A stretch of 34,515 bases of DNA. Source: a virus (taxonomy: Duplodnaviria > Heunggongvirae > Uroviricota > Caudoviricetes). The stretch lies in IMG/VR virus record IMGVR_UViG_2667527976_000007; one strand, 5' to 3'. The position numbers and the translations under genes are program-made. The notes beneath the pieces were generated by a model, which saw only the letters and a list, made by a program, of their open reading frames with translations, was not told where the DNA came from and did no database searches. Below are positions 3,686 to 32,149 of this stretch, one piece after another; position 1 is the stretch's first letter; every line of letters begins with the position of its first letter.

Positions 3686-4216
3686 TTACTGCACATCCTG
3701 CTCAAAAGGAATTATTGAAAAATCCTCAATATCACTTTTTATGGTAATACCGGGAATATTTTTCACAGCCTCTTTTTCATTCAGAATGGCATCTTTATTT
3801 ATTTCCTCCTTTACACGAATAAAGCGCTCAAGCCCCAGACGTCTCAGCAGTTCAATGACATTATCCGCCCCGCGAATGCTGACTGACGGCGGACGGTTTC
3901 GCCACTGCACCTCGCCGGTGGTGAGGTTAGCGAACTTCACCTTCCCGTTGCCGGTCAGTTCATCACGGTGCGCCTCACACCATGTCTGGATACCGGACTG
4001 CAGTTCGGCCATGCGTTTTTTCAGGCTCTCGGTGAGCGGGGCATAACGTGCAGTGATGTCGCCAATGGTGTCATTCATTTCTGTTTCAGCCCTGACCAGT
4101 TCACGTTGCGCGTCACCAAGCAGTCTGATTCCCTCAATGACCTCTTCGCGTGTCCCCGGCACCCAGAGTGCTGCTGCGGCTTTGATACGTTTTGCCCCTT
4201 TTGTACTTTTTGCCAT
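3686..4216 (-). CDS. gam: Gam-like host-nuclease inhibitor (Mu Gam family)
   Basis: 176 aa; 'MAK...KRIKAAAA...EMND.I..IT...AP....L...W...HRDELT..GKVKFANLTTGEVQWR.RPPSVSIRG.D.V.E.L.RLGL.RFIR.K.EINK.AIL.E......GI..KS.IEDFSIIPFEQ' closely parallels Mu Gam as I recall it; AGGAGG RBS upstream. Confidence 0.85.
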   Translation of the reverse strand: MAKSTKGAKRIKAAAALWVPGTREEVIEGIRLLGDAQRELVRAETEMNDTIGDITARYAPLTESLKKRMAELQSGIQTWCEAHRDELTGNGKVKFANLTTGEVQWRNRPPSVSIRGADNVIELLRRLGLERFIRVKEEINKDAILNEKEAVKNIPGITIKSDIEDFSIIPFEQDVQ

Positions 4217-4243
4217 ATTTTATGACTCCTCCTGTTGTGCTGA

Positions 4244-4515: not shown

Positions 4516-5682
4516 TTAAACCCCTTTGACAACGTCAGCGTTGACCTGTGGAACCCCGATTTCAGCGGCCAGATTCATGGCGGCTATTACCAGGTTACTG
4601 ACGGCCAGCGGATACAGCAGGCTGACCATATTTTTACGATGACTTCCCGGATTGCTCAGGCGGGCACGTATGGCATCCACTGCGCTGGCGTCCATAATGT
4701 CCGTCAGTTGTTTACCGGCCCGTTGCAGTTTGAACGTCAGAAACTCTTCAAGGTTATTGTCCAGAGGCAGAAGTTCGACCACCTCACAGCGCTGAACGAC
4801 TTCACGGACTTCCATATTGCGTTCAGACAGTTTTGTCGCCAGTTCCGGCTGGCCAATCAGCACGATGGACAGCAGTTTTTTGAAACCGGACTCCAGCTCA
4901 AAAAAGCGTTTGAGGTGTTTCAGTGTCGGAATGGGCAGACTGTGGGCCTCCTCAATCACCAGAACGTGGCTGAACCCCGCCTGGCTGCTGTCTTTCAGGA
5001 CGCGATGCAACTGGCGAAAGCGGGCGTCCTGACTGCGTCTGATGCTTTCCAGTGGTGCGATGGTACTGATAATGGCTTCGGCAATCGCTGCTGCCTTCAG
5101 GGTTTTCCCTTTCACATCGTTGTCTTCCATAGCGATGATGTATGGCTCGATAACAATTACCGGCGCATTCTCGCGGTTGATACGTTCAGTCAGGTCGCGG
5201 CGCAGCGTGGATTTACCCGCACCGGACTCACCGATGACGGCCATAAACCCACCATGACGGGCTGTCTGGTACAACGCCTCACGCACGTAGCGAATATCCG
5301 GGGTGGTGAACACATCATCAGAACCCTGCATGGCTTCGTCGGCGAACGGGTCACGGAAAAGACCAAACGCTTTTTTGGTTGCTGGAAATAACACCTGTTT
5401 TTTGAGTAACATATTCTCTTCCTCACTGAGGCTCGTTTTATCTGTGGTACCCGCTGTACGGGGCGTGGCCGCGCCCTGTACAGCATCAAAACTCTTCGTT
5501 GTATCAATCCCCTGACTTTCCAGCCAGGACGCAAGACGCCGGCGCACTTCTCCGGGGCTGGTGCGGGGCCACGCGTTATGATTCACAATCTGGGCCAGCG
5601 TGGCCTCAGAAACATCGACAGCTCTCGCCACCACCGCCTGTGGAATACGGGCCTCTTTCAGTTGCTGCTTCAGTACCAGCAT
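4516..5682 (-). CDS. MuB-like transposition ATPase (AAA+)
   Basis: Walker A 'GESGAGKST'; N-terminal HTH-like region; directly downstream of the transposase. Start set to the ATG at 5682, which follows GGAGGG 5 nt after the transposase TGA, rather than the upstream in-frame ATG at 5721. Confidence 0.8.
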   Translation of the reverse strand: MLVLKQQLKEARIPQAVVARAVDVSEATLAQIVNHNAWPRTSPGEVRRRLASWLESQGIDTTKSFDAVQGAATPRTAGTTDKTSLSEEENMLLKKQVLFPATKKAFGLFRDPFADEAMQGSDDVFTTPDIRYVREALYQTARHGGFMAVIGESGAGKSTLRRDLTERINRENAPVIVIEPYIIAMEDNDVKGKTLKAAAIAEAIISTIAPLESIRRSQDARFRQLHRVLKDSSQAGFSHVLVIEEAHSLPIPTLKHLKRFFELESGFKKLLSIVLIGQPELATKLSERNMEVREVVQRCEVVELLPLDNNLEEFLTFKLQRAGKQLTDIMDASAVDAIRARLSNPGSHRKNMVSLLYPLAVSNLVIAAMNLAAEIGVPQVNADVVKGV

Positions 5683-7465: not shown

Positions 7466-8377
7466 TTATGCCTCCAGCCCGTTAATCTGTGGCGTCGGCT
7501 CAGTCAGCCATGAAGGCGCGGCATTGCCTGTTGGCTCATCCGGCAGGTCAAATGTGGAGCGCAGGCTACGCGCTGTGCTTTCCAGTTGACAGACCAGGCC
7601 TGCCATGAAGTCTCTGGGGGTATCAATCATGTTTTCAGCACAATATGCGCACAGCGTCTCAAAAGCGCTGGACAGTCGAACGGCGATAGCAGATTCCGCC
7701 TCAACCGCTAATGCTGTCACTTCCGCCCGCAGCTTCTTAACCTCTTCATCAGGCTCAGGCGGCTGAATACGGGATTTCTTCTCCAGTCTGGTGGAGAGTG
7801 AGTCTATTTTTTCATTTTTGTCAGCGAGTACGCGCTGTTGTGCTGCGTTGGTTTCGCGCGCTTCGCGCAGGGCCTGACGCAATTCACGTACTGACATGCG
7901 ATCAACGTCGTCAAGCGTCAGGCCGGCAACTGTGCCGCCGTCGGCCAGTTCGGCAAGCTCTTCGTCGTCTTCTGTCATTAATTCGAAAAGTTTGGCTTTT
8001 CCCAAATGTGCCAACGTTGGCACATTTGGTTTCAGCGCCGGGGATAAGTATTTTGTCGATGCTTGCATCATTCTCACAGATGTCCGGTATGCCAGCCCCA
8101 ACTCACTTTCAAGAATCTTTATAAACTCCCCGTGTGGTTCATTTTCCTTAAGGATTATCAGCCGCTTACCTGCCTCCAGCATGGCCTCAGCGCTCTGTGC
8201 CATATAAAAGCGTGCCTCATGGACAACACGATCGCGCTCATAGGGCAGACCATCGCCGAACTGTTGCATGATTTCCATGCGATGCTGTGTCATGGCGTTT
8301 AGACTGACATTGAGATCATCCGACAGCGGTACCTCGACGTTCAGTTCAGTGCTAACCGGTGATTTGGTGCGTCCCAT
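7466..8377 (-). CDS. DUF3102-like early protein
   Basis: 303 aa; between the regulators and the transposase, a position where Mu-like prophages often carry a DUF3102 protein; assigned by family resemblance only. Confidence 0.45.
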   Translation of the reverse strand: MGRTKSPVSTELNVEVPLSDDLNVSLNAMTQHRMEIMQQFGDGLPYERDRVVHEARFYMAQSAEAMLEAGKRLIILKENEPHGEFIKILESELGLAYRTSVRMMQASTKYLSPALKPNVPTLAHLGKAKLFELMTEDDEELAELADGGTVAGLTLDDVDRMSVRELRQALREARETNAAQQRVLADKNEKIDSLSTRLEKKSRIQPPEPDEEVKKLRAEVTALAVEAESAIAVRLSSAFETLCAYCAENMIDTPRDFMAGLVCQLESTARSLRSTFDLPDEPTGNAAPSWLTEPTPQINGLEA

Positions 8378-9483: not shown

Positions 9484-10491
9484 ATGTCTGAGCAGACCAT
9501 TGAAGTTAAACACGTTGTAGTTCACATTTTAGACAAACAACAAAATGGAGACGCTTCTGAGAGATTGAGTCCTGAAGAAGGTCTAGTTACTGAAGCCTCC
9601 CAGCGCCTTATAAACGATATTTGTGCAAAATATGCAGGACGCACAGGTAAAGGTTATGGCTATTTTGAAGGCGATACGGATAACTATCCTATGGAACGAA
9701 TGGCTGGGGACTTTCTCGAAGGTGTTGATGATTTCTACCAAAGTTCCTGCCGAATGATGCATCACCTGACGGAACGTTCTCAGCGAGAAAACATGGCTAC
9801 TGGTGGTTATGTTCTTTTTGCAAATATCGTGATAGGACACAATGAACACCTGTTGATAGCTATTGTAAGCGCTACCATTGGATCCACTGTCACAGATGAT
9901 TTTAACATCCAAGATAGTACCTATCTTGATATTGCTAAGCTGCGTATGGCTGGGCGCATTGACTTAACCGCGTGGGAAAGTGGCGCAGAGCGCTATATCA
10001 GTTTTCTTAAGGGGCAAGGTAATGTTTCAAACTATTTTAAACAGTTCCTCGGCTGTAATGATGTCTTAATCGCCAAACGAGAGTCTGAAAAGTTACGTGA
10101 CGTTTTAAAAGCATTTGCGGCAGAGAAAGGACTTGACGGCGCTGAAAAAGATGCATTTCTTAAGAGTGCGTTTGAACACTTACATGCACTAAGTAAGGCT
10201 GGTGAACCACTTAGTCTTGAAACCCTTGTTAATGCCATTTGGCCCCAGGCTCCCGAGGAGTTATCTGGTAAACTTGCTGCTGAAGAGTTGGAGTTATCGG
10301 ATGGCTTCGTTCCTGATGGTCGAGTCATTCGGGCTCTGGTATCTTTTAAAGGCAAGTCTAAATATTGGGAACTTAAGTTTGACCGGGAAGGGAAAACTGA
10401 AGGCTATATTGATTATGATCCGGAAACAAATATTATCACCCTACGTAATGTACCTGAAGAATTTAGGGAAATGTGGATGACTGAGGTTTAA
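9484..10491 (+). CDS. YejK/NdpA-like nucleoid-associated protein (NA37 family) homologue
   Basis: 335 aa, the same length as E. coli YejK; blocks 'YLDIAKLRMAGRIDLTAWESGAERYISFLKG' and C-terminal 'YDPETNIITLRNVPEEF' parallel YejK blocks as I recall them; AAGGTGG RBS upstream; markedly AT-rich. Confidence 0.6.
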   Translation: MSEQTIEVKHVVVHILDKQQNGDASERLSPEEGLVTEASQRLINDICAKYAGRTGKGYGYFEGDTDNYPMERMAGDFLEGVDDFYQSSCRMMHHLTERSQRENMATGGYVLFANIVIGHNEHLLIAIVSATIGSTVTDDFNIQDSTYLDIAKLRMAGRIDLTAWESGAERYISFLKGQGNVSNYFKQFLGCNDVLIAKRESEKLRDVLKAFAAEKGLDGAEKDAFLKSAFEHLHALSKAGEPLSLETLVNAIWPQAPEELSGKLAAEELELSDGFVPDGRVIRALVSFKGKSKYWELKFDREGKTEGYIDYDPETNIITLRNVPEEFREMWMTEV

Positions 10492-10493
10492 TC

Positions 10494-11699
10494 GTGGCGA
10501 TTTCATTTGAGATGCTGACAGATCTGTATCGTCGTATGGAATTCCAAGAGGGGTTTCGTGTCGGTTCGCTGTTGCTCTTAGATCAGTCCGATTGTGATCT
10601 GGTTGATACTTTGCTTGATGATCCTCGTGAATATGGTCTTTCTATTGATACAGGCACTATCGCTCCAGGTAACACGATCATCCTACGTGTGACGTCACCA
10701 CGGAGTGGACTGGGACTTGTGTTTTCCACCCATGAAAAATTGCTAAATGCTCCAAAGCATCAGTGCCTTGAGCCAGCTAATTACTTCATCCTAGAAACAA
10801 AGTTTCGTAATGATGATGAAGATATCCCCGTTTTCATCAGCAACTACCGGAAGATTCTCGAGTTCGTTAACCTGCTAAAAGAGGCCGCGGCCTACTTTGA
10901 TAACTCAACTTGTCAGTTAGTTTTTCTGAAAAAAGAAGTTATCAAGCTATTACCGCACTTCGCTGCAGAAAATGTACAAAATTTGCAAAGAGAGTATCTT
11001 GATAACCTTATAGCTTGTTTCAATGATGATACCCATAAGGATCAGAAGCTAGATATTCTGATTGAAAGTATCCAAGCAGTTAGTGATGGAATTGATTCAC
11101 CTCTAGTATTCGCTTATTTACTGGACAATATTCAGCGTCTGCATGAAAAGTTTCTGAAAGGGTATCGTATCTACTCTTCTGGATTCTCTTATGACAAAGT
11201 AATGGATCAACTGCGTGCTGCAAAAGTCGAAGAAATGGGTAAAATCCACAAAGCGTTTTCAGATATCCAGAACCATATACTTGGCATTCCTGTTGCCTCT
11301 GTTATCGTAGCTACCCAATTCAAAGTGGCTACGAAATGGTCAGGCCAAGGGATAACAAACACAATAATTCTTCTGGGATGCATTTTTGCTGCAACGTTAA
11401 TCTGGCTGGCACTTTCGAACCAGATGCAATCTATAAAGGCCTTAGGCGAAGAAATTGAATACAAAGAAAAACAGATTAATAAGGAATATTCCTTCATTAA
11501 AGATGACGTGGCTGGTGTATTTAGCAGTATTTCTGCGCGACTAGACACGCAGAAACGTACGTTCTGGATTATACGTGGTGTTCTAGTTATGGGAATTATT
11601 ACCGCTATCACTGTTTATTTTTGGTACACAAAACCAGCCCTTGACTTCATGCAGTACTTGATTCACTGCATGAAGTCTTACTATTCGGTCAAAAGTTGA
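10494..11699 (+). CDS. uncharacterised protein with soluble N-terminal domain and two C-terminal TM helices
   Basis: GTG start 2 nt after the upstream TAA (translational coupling); predicted TM helices at about residues 287-307 and 357-377; no recognisable catalytic motif; AT-rich. Confidence 0.55.
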   Translation: MAISFEMLTDLYRRMEFQEGFRVGSLLLLDQSDCDLVDTLLDDPREYGLSIDTGTIAPGNTIILRVTSPRSGLGLVFSTHEKLLNAPKHQCLEPANYFILETKFRNDDEDIPVFISNYRKILEFVNLLKEAAAYFDNSTCQLVFLKKEVIKLLPHFAAENVQNLQREYLDNLIACFNDDTHKDQKLDILIESIQAVSDGIDSPLVFAYLLDNIQRLHEKFLKGYRIYSSGFSYDKVMDQLRAAKVEEMGKIHKAFSDIQNHILGIPVASVIVATQFKVATKWSGQGITNTIILLGCIFAATLIWLALSNQMQSIKALGEEIEYKEKQINKEYSFIKDDVAGVFSSISARLDTQKRTFWIIRGVLVMGIITAITVYFWYTKPALDFMQYLIHCMKSYYSVKS

Positions 11700-12459
11700 G
11701 GATAATGAGTTCCTTCTTGCGACTGGATTTGCCAGTGATCTTGAGGTTGTAGCTGATATCAACCGACTGAATATTTAGACCGTTGAATGCCTGCCGCATT
11801 TCCGGGATATCGTTCACCGATATAATCATCTTCCCTTTGATCCTGCGTGCTAAATCTGCCATATGATCATAATTTTCTAGTCCGAACTCCACACCATAAC
11901 CTTCCGTTCCCCAGTATGGAGGGTCACAGTAGAACAACGTATGCGGGCGATCATATCGTTCTATGCACTGTTGCCAGTCCATGTGTTCTATGACCGTTCT
12001 GGAAAGCCGCAGGTGTGCCGCTGACAGTTCTTCTTCAATACGCAGCAGGTTGAAGCGTGGCGGGGATATGGTGGAGGTACCAAAGCTGTGCTCCGCCACC
12101 TTGCCTCCAAACGCCTGCTTCTGAAGGTAGTAGAACCGTGCTGCACGCTGGATATCCGTCAGTGTTTCTTCCGGGGTGATCTGCAGCCATTTGTAGATCT
12201 GCCGGCTGACCAGCGCCCATTTGAACTGGCGTACAAATTCTTCCAGATGATGTTTTACCACCCGATACAGGTTCACCAGTTCACCGTTGATATCATTAAT
12301 GACTTCGATCTTGCCGGGTACCTTAAGAAAATAGAGCGCTGCTGCCCCACAAAACGGCTCCACATAACATTCATGCGCCGGAAACAGCGGCAGGATGTGT
12401 TTTGCAAGGCGGCGTTTGCCACCAATCCATGGAACGATGGGTAATGTCTGCATTTTCAT
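11689..12459 (-). CDS. DNA N6-adenine methyltransferase (Dam/D12-class family)
   Basis: 256 aa; N-terminal 'VEPFCGAAALYF' (SAM-binding motif I) and catalytic 'DPPY' motif; convergent with the cargo operon, overlapping its end by 11 nt. Confidence 0.8.
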   Translation of the reverse strand: MKMQTLPIVPWIGGKRRLAKHILPLFPAHECYVEPFCGAAALYFLKVPGKIEVINDINGELVNLYRVVKHHLEEFVRQFKWALVSRQIYKWLQITPEETLTDIQRAARFYYLQKQAFGGKVAEHSFGTSTISPPRFNLLRIEEELSAAHLRLSRTVIEHMDWQQCIERYDRPHTLFYCDPPYWGTEGYGVEFGLENYDHMADLARRIKGKMIISVNDIPEMRQAFNGLNIQSVDISYNLKITGKSSRKKELIILNF

Positions 12460-12564
12460 AATCTGTAAGCCTTTTACAATTATAAAAAATATGGCAGGCT
12501 AGTCTGGTCTCGCGAGACTGACTGAACCTCGGTCGGCTCACAGCGCATTCCTGTGGGGCGATGG

Positions 12565-12602
12565 CCAGCCCGGTGTTCGGGTACCGGGCTGGTCGTTCTT
12601 TC
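12565..12602 (+). terminator. putative intrinsic terminator/insulator hairpin
   Basis: 9-bp stem CCAGCCCGG / CCGGGCTGG (12565-12573 and 12584-12592) with a 10-nt loop, followed by T-rich TCGTTCTTTC. Confidence 0.35.
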
Positions 12603-12706
12603 AAAGTCATCATGCAGTGCACGTTTACATCTTCACTATTAACGCTGTTTAAAATCCGTATCCCGCCACATTTGTGATGCTGTCTCCACCAAACGAGGAG
12701 ACACAC

Positions 12707-13057
12707 ATGAAAAACCTGAAAAAATTCATTCCCCCTGTTAAAAAACCTCGCCTCAGCGGCTGGCTGCTGACCTCAGTGCTGTTGCTGGGCATCATCGCTC
12801 TGGTCTCGCCACAGCAGTTGCCTGTTGTGATCTACAAGCTGGCACTTATCACGCTGGCAGCAGTGCTGGGTTACTGGCTTGACCGTTCGCTCTTCCCCAA
12901 AGCCCGTCCCGGTCAGTACCTGAAACATGACGACAGGCTGATGGCTGAAGGGCGTTTCCCGGTACAGACCGGCCTTCACCTGGTGTTTTCTGCTGCGTTA
13001 ATCCGCCGTGCACTGATTGTTGCAGCGGTCTGCCTGGCTGTGGCAACAGGACTGTGA
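12707..13057 (+). CDS. putative holin-like membrane protein
   Basis: ATG at 12707 preceded by AGGAGA; 117 aa with 2-3 hydrophobic helices; immediately upstream of the endolysin, with TGA/ATG coupling. Confidence 0.5.
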   Translation: MKNLKKFIPPVKKPRLSGWLLTSVLLLGIIALVSPQQLPVVIYKLALITLAAVLGYWLDRSLFPKARPGQYLKHDDRLMAEGRFPVQTGLHLVFSAALIRRALIVAAVCLAVATGL

Positions 13058-20040: not shown

Positions 20041-20166
20041 AACCGCCTCCGGTTCACCGTATTGCTTTCCCTGTCCTTCTCCCCTGATGTTTTCTAAAGC
20101 AGATTAAAATCGCCGGGCCTGCATTTCTCACAAACTGTCTCCGACAACATAACGCGGGACAGCAAA
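20041..20166 (+). promoter_or_regulatory. putative late promoter region upstream of the I-like gene
   Basis: ~125-bp non-coding gap before the I-like gene, the position where Mu carries a C-activated late promoter; no motif confirmed. Confidence 0.35.
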
Positions 20167-21282
20167 ATGTCAGCCATTCACATTTTTAAAGCCGGTACTC
20201 ATACCGATATGCACGGCAAAAAACTGCCGTTCACGCCAGACGATCTTGCCGCCTGCGTGAAAGCCTATGACCCGTCCGTCCATGAAGCACCACTCGTGAT
20301 TGGTCATCCCAGAACGGAAGACCCGGCGTGGGGCTGGGTGAAAGCCCTGTCGCTCAGCGGCGTCGATCTGATGGCAGAGCCTGCCCAGCTGGACCCGCAG
20401 TTTGCTGAGATGGTCACCGACGGACGATTCAAAAAAGTGTCCGCCTCTTTCTACCTCCCGGATTCACCGTCCAATCCGAAGCCCGGCGTGCTCTACCTGC
20501 GCCATGTGGGCTTTCTCGGGGCACAGCCACCTTCCGTCAAGGGGCTGAAACAGGTGTCCTTCAGTGAGCAGGAAGAAGGTGTGGTGGAGTTCGCCGACTG
20601 GCAGGCCATCACGAATGCCTCCCTGTGGGGAAAGCTGCGCGATTTTCTGATCGCCCGCTTCAGTCTGGACGAAGCAGAAAAAGTCCTGCCGGAATGGCAG
20701 CTCAACAATCTGCGCGAAGAGGCGTACCGCGACACACCGTCGCAGGATGCAGCAGGTGCGCAATTCAGTGAGACAGGCCAGGTGCCGTCTTCCGCAAGTA
20801 ACGAGGAATCATCGATGACAAAAGAAGAGATTGAAGCCCTTCAGGAGGAGAACCGCCGCCTGAAGCAGCAGGCTGCTGATCGCGATGCGCGTGATGCACA
20901 GGTCAGACAGGAGCAACTGCATAAGGACAATGTGGCCTTTGCAGAAAAACTGGTCGCAGAGGGCCGTCTGGCTCCCCGCGCATCCTCCGTGGTGGTTGCC
21001 CTGCTGGATGCCGTCGCCGGTGGCGACAAGCCGGTGGAGTTTGCTGAGGGGGAAAGCCGCACACCGCTGGCCACCGCCTTTCGTTCATTGCTCTCCGACG
21101 GGGAGCCGGTGATGAATTTCGCCGAACAGGCCACAAAAGAGCGTGTCGGCGACACGGTGAAGGTGGATGTGGCAGAGTTTGCGGAAGCCGATCCTGAGCG
21201 TCTGGCCCTGCATCAGAAAGCAGTGGCCCTGTCCAAAAAAGAAGGCATCAGCTATGAGGCTGCTGTCGCACGCTGCCTGTAA
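20167..21282 (+). CDS. Mu I-like head protease/scaffold protein
   Basis: 371 aa; N-terminal protease-like domain and acidic/coiled-coil C-terminal half; directly precedes the major capsid gene. Confidence 0.7.
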   Translation: MSAIHIFKAGTHTDMHGKKLPFTPDDLAACVKAYDPSVHEAPLVIGHPRTEDPAWGWVKALSLSGVDLMAEPAQLDPQFAEMVTDGRFKKVSASFYLPDSPSNPKPGVLYLRHVGFLGAQPPSVKGLKQVSFSEQEEGVVEFADWQAITNASLWGKLRDFLIARFSLDEAEKVLPEWQLNNLREEAYRDTPSQDAAGAQFSETGQVPSSASNEESSMTKEEIEALQEENRRLKQQAADRDARDAQVRQEQLHKDNVAFAEKLVAEGRLAPRASSVVVALLDAVAGGDKPVEFAEGESRTPLATAFRSLLSDGEPVMNFAEQATKERVGDTVKVDVAEFAEADPERLALHQKAVALSKKEGISYEAAVARCL

Positions 21283-26011: not shown

Positions 26012-26080
26012 TAATCTCCTTTAATATCCGTCACGCGCTTCTCCCGACATACTGCCCTGAACTTACACAGGAGCACAATC

Positions 26081-32095: not shown

Positions 32096-32149
32096 GCTTT
32101 TTAAACGCCTTTAATATCAGCGTTCCCGCACGGGGGCAATACTGCCCCC

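Follow-up and report, generated by a model that had tools for sequence, protein, structure and literature searches.

The Dam methylases of phages shield the progeny DNA against restriction and, if over-made, can disturb mismatch repair and replication timing of the host. To our knowledge, the restraint of such enzymes by prophages is largely unknown outside the mom gene of Mu. In the Mu com-mom system the DNA-modification gene of a transposable phage is under elaborate control; overlapping divergent polymerase-binding sites were reported for the mom promoter, and a dyad-symmetric site is located upstream. We know of no conserved structured RNA at mom. The dam gene described here is likewise the DNA-modification gene of a transposable phage, and in some relatives it is preceded by a Com-like gene. 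In contrast to Mu, the window (the whole stretch of 34,515 nucleotides of viral DNA which was analysed) contains no com gene, and the palindrome found upstream of dam is unlike the late-promoter motif of the prophage. Control by OxyR and Dam of the Mu mom type requires a cluster of GATC sites, and no GATC is present in the intergenic region at 12460-12706.

A second group of related systems are the countertranscript RNAs, among them ctRNA_pGA1 (RF00236), the C4 RNA of P1/P7 and RNA-OUT of IS10. The element reported below would resemble them in its size (~80-100 nt), its stem-loops and its putative intrinsic terminator as well as in being read opposite to the adjoining gene, and by its gene layout in the phages VP882, phiE125 and B3 it would be antisense to the mRNA just upstream of dam or com. 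It differs from them in that its neighbour is a methylase gene and not a replication or immunity gene, and in that for the window no overlap is predicted between the RNA and the dam mRNA. A search of Rfam 15 gave no match for the element of the window (E <= 10). Among 22 distant loci only two showed sub-threshold matches to ctRNA_pGA1, both full-length and on the same strand (L092 with 32.7 bits and L088 with 29.5 bits, gathering threshold 45), and the other 20 showed none. Due to these sub-threshold scores membership in that family was rejected, and the likeness is one in kind only (two hairpins and a terminator). In a Chromobacterium locus (L091) two tandem sub-threshold matches to the C4 antisense RNA of the P1 type are located downstream of dam (3950-4041 and 4130-4220; 39.7 and 39.2 bits, threshold 45).

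The dam cassette can also be compared to morons, because it moves between prophages as a unit and its recombination joints are found exactly at a terminator. However, this terminator would end a separate divergent transcript and not the protein gene of the cassette. A controller (C-protein) gene of the restriction-modification type is not found in the conserved module, which comprises only dam and the element. In literature searches neither an RNA nor a regulatory element was found described next to a phage dam gene. As judged from sequence comparison, the element is a conserved companion of dam in many unrelated phages, and no curated RNA family matches it. Its occurrence beside dam in Enterobacterales, Burkholderiales, Neisseriales and the phages VP882 and B3 makes it a concrete and easily testable candidate regulator, which would add an RNA family missed by present genome annotation.

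The element between dam and the lysis genes

The prophage is of the BcepMu type with E. coli as host, and identical DNA is found in several complete E. coli chromosomes; the related phage PhiKM has been placed in Bcepmuvirus. The minus strand carries the early operon, which extends from Mor to the transposase. A repressor-type HTH gene on the plus strand is followed by two cargo genes, which encode a nucleoid-associated protein (9484-10491) and a 401-aa membrane protein (10494-11699). The dam gene (DNA adenine methylase, 11689-12459, minus strand) was assigned from the list of open reading frames and the RefSeq annotation of the identical DNA. It is separated by a gap of 247 bp (12460-12706) from the holin gene, which starts with an ATG at 12707 on the plus strand and is followed by lysin, spanins, terminase and the late genes. 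The AT-rich cargo genes (9484-11699) converge on dam with an overlap of 11 nt and without a terminator between them, so that lysogenic transcription would run antisense through dam.

The first-pass annotation described two separate sites in this gap. The palindrome GTCTCGCGAGAC is indeed present at 12507-12518, 48-59 bp upstream of the dam ATG (12459, minus strand), and the hairpin is confirmed with arms at 12565-12574 and 12583-12592, which are 100% complementary over 10 bp and enclose a loop of 8 nt. Both positions were given correctly; what had been missed is that the two features bracket one widely conserved element bound to dam. According to the sequence comparisons they are the first and the last stem-loop of this element, which covers ~12492-12603 on the plus strand and consists of an extended -10-like box (TGGCAGGCT), HP1, HP3, and HP4 with a T-tract. 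HP1 (12501-12524, no strand assigned) comprises the perfect palindrome and its imperfect flanks and is predicted to form a 5'-terminal RNA hairpin. The linker that follows (12519-12535, plus strand) may form a weak hairpin, HP2, whose helix is 80.8% paired and weakly supported. It is homologous to a conserved GAGCCTTGG box of other lineages, which is altered to GAACCTCGG in the lineage of the window. HP3 (12537-12557, plus strand) is built from the arms CTCACAG and CTGTGGG around a 7-nt loop. HP4 (12560-12603, plus strand) is a hairpin of the terminator type with a core at 12565-12592, an extended stem at 12560-12597 and the tail TCGTTCTTTCA. With G-U pairs the stem reaches 16 bp and -28.7 kcal/mol, compared to -21.1 kcal/mol for the perfect 10 bp stem. 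The sequence 3' of the core hairpin, TCGTTCTTTC, has 6 T in 10 positions, of which only CTTTCA is left if the extended stem forms.

Comparison of 41 distinct E. coli copies shows far better conservation between AAAATATGG and the T-tract than in the neighbouring dam codons. These copies were used to build a covariance model, R1, which was searched against 80 loci found via the Dam protein, with one genome per species. Full-length matches at E < 1e-3 were obtained for 53 of the 80 dam loci, each time directly upstream of dam or of a preceding Com-like gene and without exception on the strand that does not encode dam. Among the hosts are Mixta, Erwinia, Serratia, Brenneria, Citrobacter, Xenorhabdus, Photorhabdus, Burkholderia, Paraburkholderia, Chromobacterium, Iodobacter, Nitrosomonas, Rubrivivax, Methylophilaceae and others. 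Matches were also identified in Vibrio phage VP882 between tail gene D and dam (NC_009016, ~20854-20976; E 9e-10), in Burkholderia phage phiE125 between Rz and the dam gene gp27 (E 1e-7) and in Pseudomonas phage B3 upstream of com-dam (E 6e-6), and phiHAP-1 gave a weak match. In VP882, phiE125 and B3 the neighbours on both sides are read in the direction of dam, so that the element is embedded in a late operon in antisense orientation, directly before dam or com.

Small hypothetical ORFs are annotated over the element in phage B3 (ORF45/46, L148 2272-2497) and in VP882 (gp36, L147 3155-3487); these are probably not real genes. The arrangement of phage B3, in which a Com-like zinc-finger ORF separates the element from dam in a manner similar to Mu com-mom, was seen in six further loci (L123, L103, L133, L134, L144 and L100), which belong to several Betaproteobacteria and Gammaproteobacteria. 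In Pantoea stewartii (L068, ~2440-2475) the element ends right after GGCAGGCTA with unrelated DNA beyond and only a remnant score, and this interruption is probably due to an insertion. Two dam genes without the element, from Yersinia pekkanenii (L113) and Pantoea bathycoeliae (L132), have an AT-rich upstream region packed with GATC, a sequence feature which suggests that they are under a different, methylation-sensitive control.

Among 44 diverse copies changes on both sides were found in 27 of the 32 modelled pairs, and 91.6% of the cells are paired. None of 500 shuffles reached the observed values, and partner columns that were slid against each other gave 30-50% pairing. For HP4 91.6% pairing was observed, and 13 of its 15 pairs covary. 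Compensatory changes in HP4 are already seen among the E. coli copies (C-G to U-G to U-A; A-U to G-C; U-A to C-G and A-U), and the intermediates in E. coli are all wobble pairs which fit the plus strand only. HP3 has fixed arms in the E. coli copies and a loop which is hypervariable in sequence and length; in the distant copies it is 97.4% paired with four covarying pairs.

The strand was judged from several measures. The alignment behind the covariation counts had been fitted to a plus-strand model, which favours the plus strand; the energies of the single sequences and the location of the U-rich tail are independent of that fit. In total 255 G-U cells were counted compared to 46 A-C cells, and for HP3 the numbers are 41 and 1, which favours the plus strand. 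RNAalifold of 32 non-redundant copies gave -28.4 kcal/mol for the plus strand and -13.2 kcal/mol for the minus strand, and when the sequences were folded singly, without an alignment, 28 of the 32 copies had their lower minimum free energy on the plus strand. G-U pairs and folding energies hence point to the strand divergent from dam as the structured one.

An opposite assignment, in which the dam-sense strand is structured and forms the 5' leader of the dam mRNA as a riboswitch or a translational control like that of Mu com-mom, was also considered. It is compatible with the observation that both strands fold better than shuffles (z -3.1 and -3.6), with GGCTTACAG of the dam leader being an inverted repeat of GGCTCACAG in HP3, where both change together in some lineages, and with the Com-like gene that some relatives carry between element and dam. 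However, the excess of G-U pairs, which would turn into A-C mismatches on the dam strand, over A-C, above all in HP3, the consensus fold and the per-sequence energies all favour the other strand, and a U-rich tail 3' of the hairpin exists on the plus strand only. Moreover, homology among E. coli prophages ends at the hairpin, so that a dam promoter located farther upstream would sit in unrelated DNA. On the grounds of the G-U asymmetry, the energies and the side of the U-tract a dam-sense leader was rejected, and we regard it as very improbable.

HP4 behaves as a terminator-type RNA hairpin of the plus strand, which is supported by its covariation, the plus-strand wobble pairs and the pyrimidine- or T-rich tail. 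A simple terminator scan did not flag the copy of the window, but it flagged the versions of KP12 and ATCC 43896. The T-tract of the window is interrupted, and in some lineages the tail is CU-rich instead of U-rich. Clear U-tracts with runs of T6-T8 are found in GC-rich relatives, for example GGTCGCCCTGTTTTTT.

The palindrome as a shape

Taken alone, the palindrome is not unusual. The window contains eight palindromes of at least 12 bp, where dinucleotide shuffles give 9.1 +/- 3.0, and a statistical peculiarity of the palindrome by itself was ruled out due to these equal counts. A repeated operator was ruled out as well, since no second copy beyond chance is present in the window at up to three mismatches. 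The palindrome is significant only through comparison. By far the longest palindrome of the window is a perfect one of 28 bp, CCAAATGTGCCAACGTTGGCACATTTGG, which is located at 8002-8029 inside a DUF3102 CDS of the early operon.

In the E. coli family GTCTCGCGAGAC is unchanged in 39 of 41 distinct copies, while the adjacent dam codons differ by ~14%. At the homologous position of distant relatives at least 25 different perfect palindromes of 8-16 nt were found, such as GTTCTCGAGAAC, GTCATCGATGAC, CCTACCGGTAGG, CCGTAGCTACGG, CTTTCGTGCACGAAAG and GCCTCGCGAGGC. A perfect palindrome of 6-16 nt is present in 40 of 46 copies and one of at least 10 nt in 26 of them; among the shuffled controls only 1.4% contain a palindrome of 12 nt or longer. 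The central four bases are self-complementary in nearly all lineages (CGCG, TCGA, ACGT, AGCT, GGCC, CCGG, GCGC, GATC, GTAC). As far as the sequences tell, the palindrome is a hallmark of the family as a shape only, with a sequence that differs by lineage.

In the 44 diverse copies HP1 is 94.7% paired and all four modelled pairs covary. Its cells comprise 137 Watson-Crick, 7 G-U and 4 A-C combinations, which makes it nearly strand-symmetric, and within the E. coli family HP1 does not drift, whereas HP4 does. An RNA hairpin accounts for the covarying arms, but it leaves the self-complementary central four bases unexplained and fails to explain the nearly exclusive Watson-Crick pairing and the constancy within E. 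coli. The self-complementary centre and the Watson-Crick composition without drift argue for some additional constraint on the double-stranded DNA, which may be protein binding, formation of a cruciform or a mutational mechanism. The strict dyad symmetry hints at a binding site for a regulator, as had been proposed earlier. Against such a regulator stands that the sequence differs in each lineage and that a partner protein is not encoded in the module. The rule that any sequence is accepted as long as it is a palindrome is a clean puzzle on selection for DNA symmetry.

Another reading does without a functional RNA. The palindrome could be the operator of a dimeric protein on the -35 region of the dam promoter, with the hairpin as a terminator that closes the cassette. 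The strand symmetry of HP1 and its steadiness beside the drifting HP4 would fit, as would the self-complementary central 4-mer, which is needed by a two-fold symmetric DNA site and not by a hairpin loop, and the position of the palindrome centre ~31-33 bp upstream of the predicted dam start. However, Dam is the sole DNA-binding protein of the module, yet there are at least 25 lineage-specific sequences; the same palindrome is kept in E. coli prophages with four different repressor types, and the prophage has no second copy. It is also hard to explain in this way why the loop of HP3 is hypervariable in length between covarying arms with a 41:1 asymmetry of G-U pairs, and a bare terminator has no need of a conserved -10-type box ~100 nt upstream. 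We therefore consider control at the DNA level without an RNA as rather unlikely.

The module joint and the lysis promoter

The region was matched in 636 of 5426 complete E. coli genomes, but an end-to-end match was found in only 35. In an evenly spaced sample of the 636 matches, on which the following estimates are based, ~four fifths of the hits covered 12440-12603 or 12440-12609, which corresponds to an estimated several hundred of the 636 genomes. Of dam this block includes the first 20 nt, and palindrome, hairpin and T-tract all lie within it. A second block (12634/12636-12730), which carries the lysis promoter and the beginning of the holin gene, was matched separately in some of the sampled prophages, including ones without the dam block. 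The BLAST end points at 12603/12609 and 12634/12636 delimit a junction with a variable spacer (12604-12633, no strand). Homology between prophages stops directly after the T-tract, at 12603-12609, and beyond TTTCA other prophages continue with at least four unrelated sequences. In other E. coli prophages DUF2441, an IS66 element or hypothetical genes are inserted as cargo between the two blocks. By this comparison the gap is the joint of two modules, and the lysis promoter block (12634-12706) is separate from the dam element; the RNA gene proposed below would be part of the mobile dam cassette.

Four E. coli prophages (L005 at 4940-5170, L010, L059 and L042) retain only the first ~80 nt of dam, with the upstream element whole. 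In these the plus-strand -10 sequence TACAAT is changed to TATAAT. In another locus (L013, 2801-2826 and 3795-3841) a DUF2441 cargo insertion has the terminator tail of the element on its left flank and a second, internally deleted copy of the element on its right flank (GGCTAGTCAGGT...GCACCCGGCTTGTCGTTCTTTCA). This arrangement suggests that the ends of the element serve as recombination joints for the exchange of cargo. An integron attC-like or cassette recombination site at the boundary was rejected from reading the sequence, because GTTRRRY is not matched by the tail, which reads GTTCTTT.

The late lysis promoter block (12634-12706, plus strand) is a separately conserved module. It contains TTAAC at 12639-12643, TTAAAATC at 12649-12656, the -10-like GATGCT at 12676-12681, CTGTCT at 12680-12685 and the ribosome-binding site GAGGAG at 12695-12700. 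The motif TTAAWATC-N23-CTGYCY is found upstream of four late operons on the plus strand (12649-12685, 20104-20140, 26021-26057 and 32111-32147) and nowhere else in the window, where 0.05 matches are expected. It was derived from three upstream regions, and the fourth exact match was then found at 32111. The motif is preceded, ~10 bp upstream, by another TTAAN. The four sites, which the analysis locates along with the cargo exchange sites, are probably late promoters of this prophage that depend on an activator of the Mor family, as in Mu.

This bears on the earlier proposal that the palindrome could be a regulator-binding site, with a Mor/C-like activator in view, and the hairpin an insulating terminator which shields the lysis promoter. 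A link to such an activator is not supported: the late promoters share another motif, to which the palindrome shows no likeness, and it is therefore not the site of a Mor-type activator. The proposal for the hairpin stands in part. A terminator-type hairpin is in fact located 45 bp upstream of the late block on the same strand. Downstream of the repressor/cargo operon no convincing plus-strand terminator precedes it, and no other is found before the holin gene; it would consequently stop rightward transcription before the lysis genes. But the hairpin is not conserved for that purpose. It travels with dam, and in most of the E. coli prophages that carry the cassette other genes lie between it and the lysis promoter; prophages without the dam cassette use other terminators. 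The element is also present in phages where no lysis gene follows, and in VP882, phiE125 and B3 the hairpin faces tail or lysis genes that read towards the element. Insulation as the primary role is already contradicted by these observations, and we hold it, together with the activator site, for quite doubtful. The shielding of the lysis genes would be a local benefit of a structure which is conserved for another reason.

Promoters and the putative countertranscript RNA

Promoter candidates for both directions were identified between dam and the element. The dam leader (12460-12481, minus strand) with the ribosome-binding region AAAAGGCTTACAG was read from the sequence and the alignments; within it GTAAGCCTTTT is conserved from E. 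coli to Burkholderia. According to the alignments two candidate -10 sequences of dam lie at 12479-12491 on the minus strand, TATAAT (12484 to 12479), which is confined to the subgroup of the window, and TATTTT (12491 to 12486), which is conserved in Enterobacterales. A good -35 sequence is not present upstream of either of them, and HP1 overlaps the -35 region of this candidate promoter.

On the plus strand a box of the form nGnTANNNT is found 6-10 nt before the palindrome in every lineage. In 44 distinct copies G(-14) was counted 38 times, T(-12) 40 times, A(-11) 42 times and T(-7) 43 times, numbers which come from a best-match search and are thus somewhat flattering. The hexamer itself varies (TAGGCT, TAGAAT, TAAACT, TACGCT, CATACT). 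That the key positions are kept while the hexamer changes is, on the sequence level, the signature of an extended -10 promoter. In the window the candidate promoter of the divergent RNA (12473-12500) would consist of the -35 sequence TTTACA (12473-12478), a spacer of 16 nt and TGG-CAGGCT (12492-12500). The hexamer CAGGCT is weak and helped only by the TG and a -35 element with five of six positions; an alternative hexamer, TAGTCT, is located 5 nt further on. From the position of TGG-CAGGCT a start at ~12506-12507 is predicted, at the foot of the palindrome, which would result in an RNA of ~97 nt. Since the candidate -10 sequences of dam directly adjoin the box on the opposite strand, the two promoters are back to back and should exclude each other.

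A plus-strand promoter at 12453-12480, which was proposed by a scan, was discarded as the conserved start because in the sister group its -10 sequence reads TGCAAT and lacks the key A. A sigma-54 promoter at TGGCAG was dismissed from the sequence due to wrong spacing and lack of conservation.

Taken together, the region 12492-12603 is rather probably a gene for a structured RNA of the countertranscript type, ~97 nt in length, which belongs to dam and is divergent from it. The sequences establish that the element is conserved and covaries, that its strands are asymmetric, where its module ends and how it is placed relative to dam; production of the RNA, its start and an effect on dam are what we infer. 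RNA polymerase would start at the extended -10 promoter (TGGCAGGCT), ~6-7 nt before the palindrome. The palindrome would form the 5'-terminal hairpin of the transcript, HP3 would follow, and the GC-rich hairpin with its T-tract would end it near 12600. The promoter cores of RNA and dam would lie within ~10 bp so that only one could be occupied at once, and firing of the RNA promoter would then lower the expression of dam. In VP882, phiE125 and B3, where dam or com-dam is part of a late operon, the RNA would be antisense to the incoming mRNA and could act as a countertranscript. In this prophage the terminator, 45 bp ahead of the lysis promoter of the Mor type, would in addition halt this transcription and any that leaves the repressor/cargo operon and runs antisense through dam.

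A restraint of dam by the element, through promoter competition in the window and through antisense pairing or transcriptional collision where dam is in a late operon, is a tentative proposal. In this window no overlap is seen between the RNA and the dam mRNA as predicted, and the neighbour on the other side is the divergent holin gene; antisense pairing would therefore not apply in this prophage. Pairing of the RNA with the dam leader was also considered. The 3' arm of HP3 (CUGUGGG) and the dam leader (CUUACAG) share a match of 6-8 bp which changes in step in two lineages. However, in three designs pairing of the RNA with the ribosome-binding and start region of dam was not better than in shuffled or non-cognate controls. 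The mean z was ~0 against shuffles, and for the dam start region, the only target tested, cognate pairs gave -7.4 kcal/mol and non-cognate pairs -6.7 kcal/mol. A modest preference for the cognate partner was seen in the lineages with CUGCGGG and CAGUGGA.

The RNA could also be a trans-acting, chaperone-bound sRNA which acts on host or phage messages elsewhere, like VpdS or PreS of lambda, so that its proximity to dam reflects co-inheritance. Its architecture is typical for such RNAs, with a 5' hairpin, a conserved single-stranded box, which in most lineages reads GAGCCTTGG, and a terminator hairpin followed by a pyrimidine tail, and VpdS and PreS are likewise short phage-borne RNAs with a terminator hairpin. 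Phage VP882, which carries a copy of the element, is reported to encode VpdS, an Hfq-binding sRNA of ~50 nt that promotes replication (PMC12197685). For the map position of VpdS in VP882 no coordinates were found in reviews. However, the reported ~50 nt differ from the ~95 nt predicted for the element, and the conserved box is altered in the lineage of the window (GAACCTCGG). A target could not be predicted, and for the dam start region complementarity was not above background. The element is tied to dam across unrelated phage types and long evolutionary distances, which argues for a role related to dam. We consider a trans-acting RNA of this kind fairly improbable.

For the countertranscript-type RNA divergent from dam, a more far-reaching model can be offered as a speculation. 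The element might represent an undescribed, widespread phage RNA family tied to dam, whose first part is selected for being a perfect palindrome in DNA, irrespective of its sequence. This part would act both in double-stranded DNA on the -35 region of the dam promoter, either as an operator or as a supercoil-sensitive cruciform, and as the 5' hairpin of a countertranscript, and the two levels would constitute a switch by which a potentially mutagenic methylase is silenced until lytic growth.
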